From Escherichia phage ECO103 4-12-1: 64,000 nt of DNA. Location of the stretch: sequence record OR844650; one strand, written 5' to 3'. The notes beneath the pieces are model-generated. The model made no database searches. It was not told the DNA's origin and was given only the letters and a program-made list of their open reading frames with translations. Made by a program: the position numbers and the translations under genes. This document shows positions 32,924-33,475 of the stretch, piece after piece (the first letter of the stretch is position 1; each line of letters opens with the position of its first letter).

Positions 32924-33158
32924 ATACTAAATGATTAAAATGTTCTGTATTCGCATACTTTGCTAAGTCGGTTATGAGGAAGTTTGTATCTTTAAATCTG
33001 CCATCATTGTATGTTGTGATTTGAAAACGTAGTTCAGGTGCAAAAATATAATAATAGAATATATCATTTACACACCCAACAGTATGCTTAGCATATCTTT
33101 CAATTTTCATGTATGGATAATCTCTTTCACCCCATATTCTTTTATTGCTAATGAGCAA
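32889..33158 (-). CDS. hypothetical protein
   Basis: track ORF. Confidence 0.4.
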   Translation of the reverse strand: MLISNKRIWGERDYPYMKIERYAKHTVGCVNDIFYYYIFAPELRFQITTYNDGRFKDTNFLITDLAKYANTEHFNHLVFVYCIPNPNKK

Positions 33159-33475
33159 ATTTCACATGGTTTAGCCGGAACAGGAATTCCATCTTTACTT
33201 ATCCGTGCAATCAGTAAAGTATGAACATCAGCACGAGCAGCCAGTAAACATGAAATTTCAGCATGAAGAAACTCACCTTGCGGTCGCCCAGCACGAATGG
33301 CGAAACCCTTCTGTACTGGGTGAGTCTGTGTATAAGAATTTGTGCGAGTTGCCAGTACTCTACCTTTTTTATCAAGTGCACGAGCAATAACACGATACCG
33401 TTTGTAATTTCCTACTTGTTCAATAGGTGGCATCTGGCGTAATTCTTCGATTAGTTTCTCCAATTTACTATTCAT
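33107..33475 (-). CDS. small zinc-dependent deaminase (cytidine/deoxycytidylate deaminase fold)
   Basis: HAE .. PCEIC motif pair; GC content locally higher than neighbours. Confidence 0.5.
   Translation of the reverse strand: MNSKLEKLIEELRQMPPIEQVGNYKRYRVIARALDKKGRVLATRTNSYTQTHPVQKGFAIRAGRPQGEFLHAEISCLLAARADVHTLLIARISKDGIPVPAKPCEICSLAIKEYGVKEIIHT

Follow-up and report, generated by a model that had tools for sequence, protein, structure and literature searches.

A small gene in a 64,000-nucleotide stretch of the genome of Escherichia phage ECO103 4-12-1 (OR844650), the whole of which is referred to here as the window, specifies a 122-amino acid (aa) protein which by its sequence is a real zinc deaminase of the cytidine deaminase (CDA) superfamily, with intact HAE and PCEIC motifs. 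As judged from its sequence and a predicted structure this protein falls outside the deoxycytidine monophosphate (dCMP) deaminase, CDA and TadA clades, because most of the diagnostic features of these three clades fail in it, and it is assigned to a distinct clade of the superfamily. The window also encodes a canonical T4-type dCMP deaminase (Cd), and the reading that we favour, at roughly even chances, is that the small enzyme is an unregulated deaminase of free (deoxy)cytidine nucleotides which does not duplicate the canonical one.

The original prediction of a small CDA-fold deaminase with HAE and PCxxC motifs was confirmed, the motifs being read directly from the sequence and the protein being matched by Pfam family PF00383 (29.0 bits, the gathering cutoff being 25; E=1e-6) and by PHROG 174, 'dCMP deaminase' (E=3e-13), while a family profile run exhaustively against 1.84 billion cluster representatives returned 4,380 of them at E<=1e-3, of which 1,052 reached E<=1e-10. 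On the strength of these statistics the HAE/PCxxC combination was established not to be a chance pair of motifs. Position-wise conservation was taken over 128 diverse members of the small family, all of which match PF00383, and was complete or nearly so at the zinc and catalytic residues (H71 99%, A72 97%, E73 100%, and P103, C104 and C107 100% each). It extended to a family signature (N46 98%, K50 83%, T/S51 99%, H52 96%, P53 95% and Q55 89%), to the stretch L70-H71-A72-E73 (90-100%), R91 (98%) and G96 (83%) and, in the C-terminal half, to A/S101 (98%), A110 (92%) and Y/H/F121 (92%). When the sequences of the Protein Data Bank were searched with the small deaminase as a single sequence no match was obtained, and it was the family profile alone that reached solved deaminases, the nearest of which are dCMP deaminases (S-TIM5 4p9c, 4.5e-11; S. 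mutans, 1.8e-7; T4, 1.6e-6; human, 1e-5). Interleaved among these in the ranking were a Mycoplasma tRNA deaminase (3e-9) and TadA (1e-5), with CDA and guanine deaminase following at approximately 1e-3 (CDA 1ux1, E=9.5e-4). Sequence and model together suggest that the small deaminase is probably catalytically active.

The superfamily has been divided by Iyer et al. 2011 (PMC3239186), who list clade synapomorphies, into a C-terminal-hairpin division comprising the CDA, BSD and toxin clades and a helix-4 division comprising the dCMP deaminase, TadA, RibD, GuaD and APOBEC clades. The insert of the small family is a single helix (residues 53-61) without conserved Cys, as compared to the bihelical zinc-binding insert of the dCMP deaminases, and the Zn2 ligands C19, C49, H94 and E102 of the T4 enzyme (PMC12697855) have no counterparts. 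NxxP is missing, as position 49 is occupied by T, V, S or K and not by P, and so is G(Y/W)NG, there being no aromatic residue before N46 and no Gly after it, whereas the co-resident Cd has GYNGTP. Likewise missing are HAExNA (A, S, D or H at position 75, A in 81% at position 76, and the Asn unconserved) and TxxxT of strand 3 (T in 35% at position 86, and A, V, E or I at position 90). The aromatic position after strand 4 is kept (position 121: Y 67%, H 14%, this being the residue of the window protein, and F 11%), while helix 4, between strands 4 and 5, is absent from the models of both the short and the long form. The ComEB equivalog model does not match the small deaminase, although it does match the co-resident canonical Cd. 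With regard to CDA, the small deaminase reaches 13.7 bits with model TIGR01354, the cutoff of which is 113.65; the family has Q, E, S or M at position 108, where PCxxCR would require Arg, and the window protein has no strand 5, at the end of which CDA carries a Glu. The TadA model NF008113 gave no match to the small deaminase, and a weak one to the canonical Cd; the motif of the small family reads K-P-C-x-I-C as opposed to EPCxMC in TadA, and no C-terminal helices are present. The MafB19-like toxin deaminase family PF14437 scored 12.3 bits against a cutoff of 27 and is non-discriminating, as canonical Cds match it too (57.5 bits); a toxin deaminase of this type would be the C-terminal domain of a secreted polymorphic toxin next to an immunity gene, which does not fit a stand-alone 122-aa protein whose gene lies among early/metabolic genes of a phage and has no conserved partner.

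An AlphaFold2 model built on 21 homologs (predicted local distance difference test score, pLDDT, 93.6; predicted template modelling score, pTM, 0.85) gives the order a1 (3-14), b1 (28-34), b2 (40-45), an extra helix (53-61), a2 with HAE (72-80), b3 (86-92), a3 with PCxxC (105-114) and b4 (118-121), at which the chain ends, so that the modelled short form has the four strands b1-b4 where the three-layer alpha/beta/alpha fold of the superfamily has a five-stranded sheet. A long-form member (P0057; pLDDT 92.0) was modelled with b4 at 111-115, a five-residue turn and b5 at 121-125, with no helix between, and its secondary-structure string suggests that b4 and b5 pair as a hairpin. The 49 close homologs of the small deaminase are all of 103-141 aa, and among approximately 190 family sequences about half stop 15-17 residues past PCxxC and about a third carry 25-29 residues. 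A truncated or split gene was ruled out on the grounds that about half of the family stops at the same point and that the orthologs in Rak2-like phages are all of 121-125 aa. By sequence these proteins make up a family of deaminases of approximately 100-135 aa, comprising more than 1,000 clusters at 50% identity.

The conserved active site on the confidently modelled CDA fold has His71, Cys104 and Cys107 in position as zinc ligands and Glu73 as the proton shuttle. In the mechanism proposed here the substrate would be a free (deoxy)cytidine nucleotide, whether dCMP, dCDP or dCTP, the cytosine of which is deaminated, as suggested by the dCMP deaminases among the profile relatives, the cap-like insert, residues His52 and Arg91, and the ribonucleotide reductase (RNR) neighbours. 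The insert between b2 and the catalytic helix is common to the small family and the dCMP deaminases, whereas TadA-type enzymes are without it (a 14-residue gap in the alignment with 6l2m), and the family-specific His52 and Arg91 would probably hold the phosphate. The uracil nucleotide product would feed the phage thymidylate synthase in a genome that is 67% A+T. As it is without G(Y/W)NG, the zinc-stabilised cap and everything past b4, the small deaminase is probably unregulated and would be free of the feedback by dCTP and dTTP to which the T4-type enzyme of the same phage is subject, thereby allowing a phage of approximately 350 kb and this composition to keep making deoxyuridine and thymidine nucleotides when dTTP would stop the T4-type Cd. 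The two enzymes would then be complementary in regulation, in the phosphorylation state of the substrate or in timing.

Two considerations limit how specific the assignment can be. The phosphorylation state of the substrate, and even its class, is not callable from sequence, as experiments in the wider family show varied preferences: members named 'dCMP deaminase' may prefer dCMP, dCDP or dCTP (PMC12697855), others may act on 5-methylcytosine/5-hydroxymethylcytosine (5mC/5hmC) nucleotides and single-stranded DNA (ssDNA) (bioRxiv 10.1101/2024.12.05.627091), and the latter enzymes, mSCD-B5 and its homologs, show that annotation is no guide to substrate range in the superfamily. The other consideration is that N46, A72, E73 and P103 of the small family align with Asn40, Ala105, Glu106 and Pro131 of T4 Cd, which hold the deoxycytidine moiety (PMC12697855), while these contact residues recur in much of the superfamily and hence speak for a working active site without pointing to any one substrate.

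The claim of a canonical T4-type dCMP deaminase elsewhere in the window was likewise correct, its match to T4 Cd being full-length (see the table), and it is 24% identical to the small deaminase. Rak2-like phages carry the small gene in addition to a T4-type Cd, and the paper on phage CBB describes two CMP/dCMP deaminases in Rak2-like phages, CBB_110 and CBB_135, both of which it treats as suppliers of dUMP. The unrelated 76-kb Limnohabitans phage DC31 (PQ492658.1) has exactly two open reading frames (ORFs) with CDA motifs, both confirmed by Pfam, of which one is a GYNG-type Cd and the other a long-form member of the small family with 41% identity to the protein of the window. This pair (33684..34729 of locus L092) lies on one strand with a single 88-aa gene between its members and ThyX 4 kb off, and is the tightest pairing seen. 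In a metagenomic locus (L040) the small deaminase and a canonical Cd are 8.5 kb apart. A complete scan of phiKZ found gp260 to be the sole CDA-fold ORF, and a Dcd-type dCTP deaminase, PHIKZ214, to be present (PF22769, 117 bits), along with thymidylate synthase, dTMP kinase, DHFR and RNR. The small family was therefore found alongside another enzyme converting dC to dU in all four lineages examined (Rak2-like phages, DC31, L040 and phiKZ), which weighs against simple redundancy. The phiKZ member, PHIKZ260 (L002 4998..5357), is known in RefSeq by that name only; it has H-S-E where the others have H-A-E, for which reason it was missed by a strict motif scan, and scores 20 bits with PF00383 (cutoff 25), and its interpretation as a pseudo-enzyme was rejected. 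One deaminase of the Rak2-like group was called a 'tRNA-specific adenosine deaminase' regulating translation in the Sharanji genome paper (PMC11895373; WNN14772.1); by gene order, WNN14772.1 is probably the T4-type dCMP deaminase, hence likely a mis-annotation.

The small family was detected by tblastn in 195 records of GenBank phages (Synechococcus 57, Pseudomonas 47, Escherichia 31, Aeromonas 15, and others), the Pseudomonas records being those of the phiKZ group, and a profile search of 5.8 billion proteins gave 744 matches at E<=1e-8 on contigs of up to 440 kb, with source names divided between 'deoxycytidylate deaminase' and 'TadA'. Among 185,579 prokaryotic species, each represented by a single genome, a pattern scan found just two relatives, both on short contigs of metagenome-assembled genomes, as compared to 141 relatives found with comparable patterns in IMG/VR. 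As far as the sensitivity of such patterns allows one to tell, the family is apparently phage-restricted. Genomic context was determined over 80 IMG/VR loci, representing 23 lineages at 75% identity, in which no conserved operon partner was found and no neighbour family occurred in more than 6 of the 23 lineages. The most recurrent neighbours, confirmed by Pfam, were glutaredoxin, NrdA, NrdB, NrdD, NrdG, ATP-dependent DNA ligase and Hsp20, and an RNR gene or glutaredoxin lay within 10 kb of the small deaminase in 11 lineages, at median distances of 1.6-4.6 kb. The RNR neighbours belong to non-homologous classes, class I NrdAB with glutaredoxin in some lineages and class III NrdDG in Rak2-like phages. 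No thymidylate synthase was found in cis to the small deaminase at the loci examined; one is encoded in every phage examined genome-wide.

Several other functions may be proposed for the small deaminase, and the suggestion in the original prediction that it may have a different substrate is a plausible one. That it takes another cytosine substrate, either (deoxy)cytidine nucleosides in a CDA-like salvage reaction or 5-methyl- or 5-hydroxymethyl-dC nucleotides, would explain its retention beside an ordinary dCMP or dCTP deaminase, and is considered unlikely though not negligible. The profile similarity to CDA is far weaker than that to the dCMP deaminases, as is evident from the values for 1ux1 and TIGR01354 given above, the PCxxCR hallmark of CDA is absent, and His52 and Arg91, both basic and near-invariant, would suit an anionic ligand, one that is phosphorylated. 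The 5mC-selective enzymes are of approximately 154 aa with a prototypical fold, and a dCMP-methylating thymidylate synthase is encoded no more than 3 kb from them, neither of which applies here; the papers examined on this phage group report no DNA hypermodification. A redundant, ordinary dCMP deaminase of the dCMP deaminase/ComEB type, kept as a second copy for dosage, would agree with the GenBank annotation 'dCMP deaminase' in the relatives 121Q, CBB, BF and others, with the role as dUMP supplier assigned to both copies in the CBB paper, and with the best profile matches being dCMP deaminases. We nevertheless regard it as improbable, as the small protein has no bihelical zinc insert, NxxP, HAExNA, TxxxT, G(Y/W)NG or helix-4/b5/helix-5, fails to match the ComEB equivalog model and shares just 24% identity with the co-resident Cd, and as the pairing of a small with a canonical enzyme is kept independently in unrelated phages, which is not expected of a dosage duplicate.

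Editing of a polynucleotide, be it tRNA (TadA-like A-to-I or C-to-U), mRNA or ssDNA, is judged distinctly improbable. The small deaminase is without the C-terminal helices by which TadA grips tRNA and is not matched by NF008113, it has a cap-like insert of the kind that in dCMP deaminases limits access to soluble nucleotide, and its neighbours are RNR and not translation genes. A TadA-like role is further opposed by the distribution of tRNA genes, with no tRNA-Arg gene in phiKZ or DC31 and no tRNA gene in the 64-kb window. A part in counter-defence, in which the enzyme would destroy a cytosine-containing immune signal such as the cCMP of Pycsar or edit a host defence molecule, would fit a phage-restricted family that is kept beside metabolic deaminases and among small unknown genes of an early type, and yet we hold it to be extremely improbable, as no association with known anti-defence genes was observed, the RNR neighbourhood points to metabolism, and the literature searched offered no precedent. 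The reading preferred over these alternatives is that of an unregulated enzyme acting on free (deoxy)cytidine nucleotides.

The remaining alternative concerns the origin of the gene, as the original prediction had read its higher GC content, relative to its neighbours, as a sign of horizontal acquisition. The compositional difference itself is real, since the total GC of the small deaminase gene is 40.4% against a mean of 32.7% over 116 ORFs of the window (standard deviation, SD, 3.8; z=2.0), which ranks it second of the 116 and first among plausible genes. The excess, however, sits only at codon positions 1 and 2 (GC1 56% and GC2 41%, each rank 4 of 116), whereas GC at the third position (GC3) is 23.6% against a mean of 24.7%, at the median of the window (rank 60). 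The excess at positions 1 and 2 is due to the amino acid composition, in which Asn, Asp, Phe and Tyr are scarce while Ala (9.8% vs 4.2%), Arg (8.2% vs 3.9%) and Pro (5.7% vs 2.9%) are abundant. Synonymous codon choice was scored by leave-one-out likelihood over the 112 minus-strand genes of the window, and the small deaminase ranked as the seventh most atypical (z=-2.1; distribution mean -0.13, SD 1.38), a mild deviation driven by its Arg codons. Both CGG codons of all 112 genes fall within it, as do 2 of 60 CGC codons; this clustering is an isolated codon oddity which overall GC3 does not show.

The window belongs to an Asteriusvirus/Rak2-like jumbo phage, being 99.8% identical to BF17 and 99.7% to phAPEC6, with slurp01, PBECO4 and 121Q as close relatives. 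The small deaminase protein is 100% identical in PBECO4, UB and Salmonella SD phages (SD-1_S14), and ortholog identity amounts to 74-75% in Klebsiella K64-1, 63% in Salmonella Munch and 53-57% in Pectobacterium CBB, Serratia BF and Yersinia fHe-Yen9. The 208-aa gene lies directly upstream in all 13 Rak2-like IMG/VR loci and nrdD approximately 2 kb downstream in 12 of them. Orthologs in Rak2-like phages have a total GC that is 1-7 points over the local mean, while their GC3 follows the genome (21.1% vs 20.0% in L013 and 17.9% vs 18.9% in L024). As the orthologs show the same excess and their GC3 tracks the genome, the raised GC is attributed to a conserved protein encoded in an A+T-rich genome. 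Recent transfer could appeal to the total GC, the codon rank and the CGG codons; it is very improbable in view of the median GC3, the amino acid composition that explains the GC excess, and the syntenic orthologs in all Rak2-like genera, at 53-75% identity and each with GC3 tracking its genome. Horizontal acquisition was consequently rejected on GC3, synonymous-codon likelihood, amino acid composition, synteny and ortholog GC3 tracking, and the sequence comparisons identify the small deaminase as an old, vertically inherited gene of the Rak2-like/Asteriusvirus lineage. Of the two outcomes that the original prediction had named as speaking against it, GC3 and codon usage not different from the genome were found, while a best match to an ordinary dCMP deaminase was not, the synapomorphies of that clade failing in the small protein.

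Table 1. Location of the small deaminase gene, its motifs and other features in the window
Feature	Coordinates	Strand	Description and basis
Small CDA-fold deaminase coding sequence, short form	33107..33475	minus	122 aa, ATG start, ends after strand b4; ORF list, PF00383, AlphaFold2 model
H71-A72-E73	33257..33265	minus	His zinc ligand and catalytic Glu; codons CAT GCT GAA, read from sequence
P103-C104-E-I-C107	33155..33169	minus	Two Cys zinc ligands; codons CCA TGT GAA ATT TGC, read from sequence
Family signature N46-S-Y-x-(K/Q)-T-H52-P53-x-Q55	33311..33340	minus	Before extra single helix 53-61; family conservation and model
R91	33203..33205	minus	Family-specific near-invariant Arg (R 98%), end of b3, start of 7-12-residue insertion before PCxxC
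208-aa gene, upstream	33472..34098	minus	PHROG 16370 (unknown function), no Pfam match; TGA overlaps deaminase ATG (ATGA, 33472..33475)
73-aa gene, downstream	32889..33110	minus	No PHROG or Pfam match; ATG overlaps deaminase TGA (ATGA, 33107..33110)
NrdD, anaerobic ribonucleotide reductase	29634..31502	minus	1.6 kb downstream; ortholog cluster PF13597 541 bits; nrdD-like in 121Q
NrdG activase	28851..29321	minus	PF13353 180 bits
Canonical T4-type dCMP deaminase	44592..45071	minus	159 aa; PF00383 78 bits; E=5.9e-35 full-length to T4 Cd 1vq2; GYNG, HAEMNA, PCxxC

As the deaminase gene overlaps both of its neighbours by ATGA, the 208-aa gene, the deaminase gene and the 73-aa gene are probably translationally coupled; these two neighbours are specific to Rak2-like phages. 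A DUF4326 protein (PF14216, 85 bits) is encoded at 29293..29625 (minus strand) between nrdD and nrdG, overlapping the start of the latter. The longest nrdD ORF of the window is of 622 aa as compared to 601 aa (1,806 nt) annotated in 121Q, and the true start of nrdD may lie downstream of the first ATG. Upstream of the deaminase, at a distance of 1.8 kb, a 323-aa protein (35279..36250, minus strand) carries a C-terminal WGR domain (PF05406, E=1e-10), a domain typical of PARP-like and DNA-damage-sensing proteins. Two large paralogous genes on the minus strand (22733..25462 and 26078..28774), which encode proteins of 909 and 898 aa with 27% identity over their full length (E=3e-62), have no Pfam match, a high GC2 (0.42-0.44) and a low GC3, and flank a 195-aa gene of like composition; they may specify structural or fibre-like proteins.

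The gene itself is already known, being 100% identical in published Asteriusvirus genomes, where it is sometimes called 'dCMP deaminase', and so is the count of two deaminases; in the literature found, the small copy is treated as nothing but a dCMP deaminase. What is new, on sequence grounds, is that the small copy lies outside the dCMP-deaminase clade and represents a large, apparently phage-only clade of minimal zinc deaminases, the carriers of which range from cyanophages and jumbo coliphages to model phages, phiKZ (gp260) among them. Should the small copy prove to be an unregulated dCMP deaminase, there would be nothing out of the ordinary in the finding. It is doubtful, though conceivable, that it represents a functionally new type of deaminase, the smallest natural CDA-fold enzyme (approximately 100-122 aa, with a four-stranded core), which phages would retain beside canonical dCMP/dCTP deaminases because it acts on something else, such as ssDNA or RNA, 5-modified cytosine nucleotides or a cytosine-containing immune signal like cCMP. 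Were the small family to act on polynucleotides it would offer an exceptionally compact base-editor scaffold, as very small deaminases are sought for genome editing. Knowledge of the substrate would fill a gap concerning phage nucleotide pools, namely how A+T-rich giant phages override the feedback control of both host and phage.

Among known systems the dCMP deaminase/ComEB clade (T4 Cd 1vq2, S-TIM5 4p9c, S. mutans 2hvv, human DCTD and PBCV-1 bi-DCD) is the one with which the small family has most to be compared; enzymes of this clade deaminate dCMP as hexamers that dCTP activates and dTTP inhibits allosterically. Common to both are the HxE...PCxxC zinc site, the conserved Asn after b2, the dC-contacting Ala-Glu and Pro, the insert between b2 and the catalytic helix, the Y/H that ends b4, and an occurrence in phages with thymidylate synthase and RNR. 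The small family differs, however, in that its insert is a single helix without a second zinc site, in that G(Y/W)NG, NxxP, HAExNA and TxxxT are lacking, and in a 7-12-residue insertion between b3 and PCxxC, with an invariant Arg, which is absent from canonical Cds. Furthermore, it is 30-70 residues shorter and is without helix-4/b5/helix-5, its long forms ending in what is probably a b4-b5 hairpin and the window copy at b4. In comparison with the homotetrameric CDA and blasticidin-S deaminases (1ux1, 3dmo, 3oj6 and 3b8f), to which similarity is weak (E approximately 1e-3), the small family has HAE and not CAE, no Arg after PCxxC, and an extra helix before the catalytic helix, while strand b5, which in CDA helps to form the neighbouring active site, is missing from the short form. 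From TadA/ADAT2 it is set apart by the absence of the tRNA-binding C-terminal helices and of EPCxMC, by the cap insert that faces the gap in 6l2m, and by carriers that include phages without tRNA-Arg. Like the small deaminase, mSCD-B5 and its homologs (bioRxiv 10.1101/2024.12.05.627091) are phage-encoded and annotated as dCMP deaminases; these, however, have approximately 154 aa and a prototypical fold closest to PBCV-1 7fh4, and their genes have that of a dCMP-methylating or -hydroxymethylating thymidylate synthase homolog no more than 3 kb away, neither of which holds for the small deaminase.

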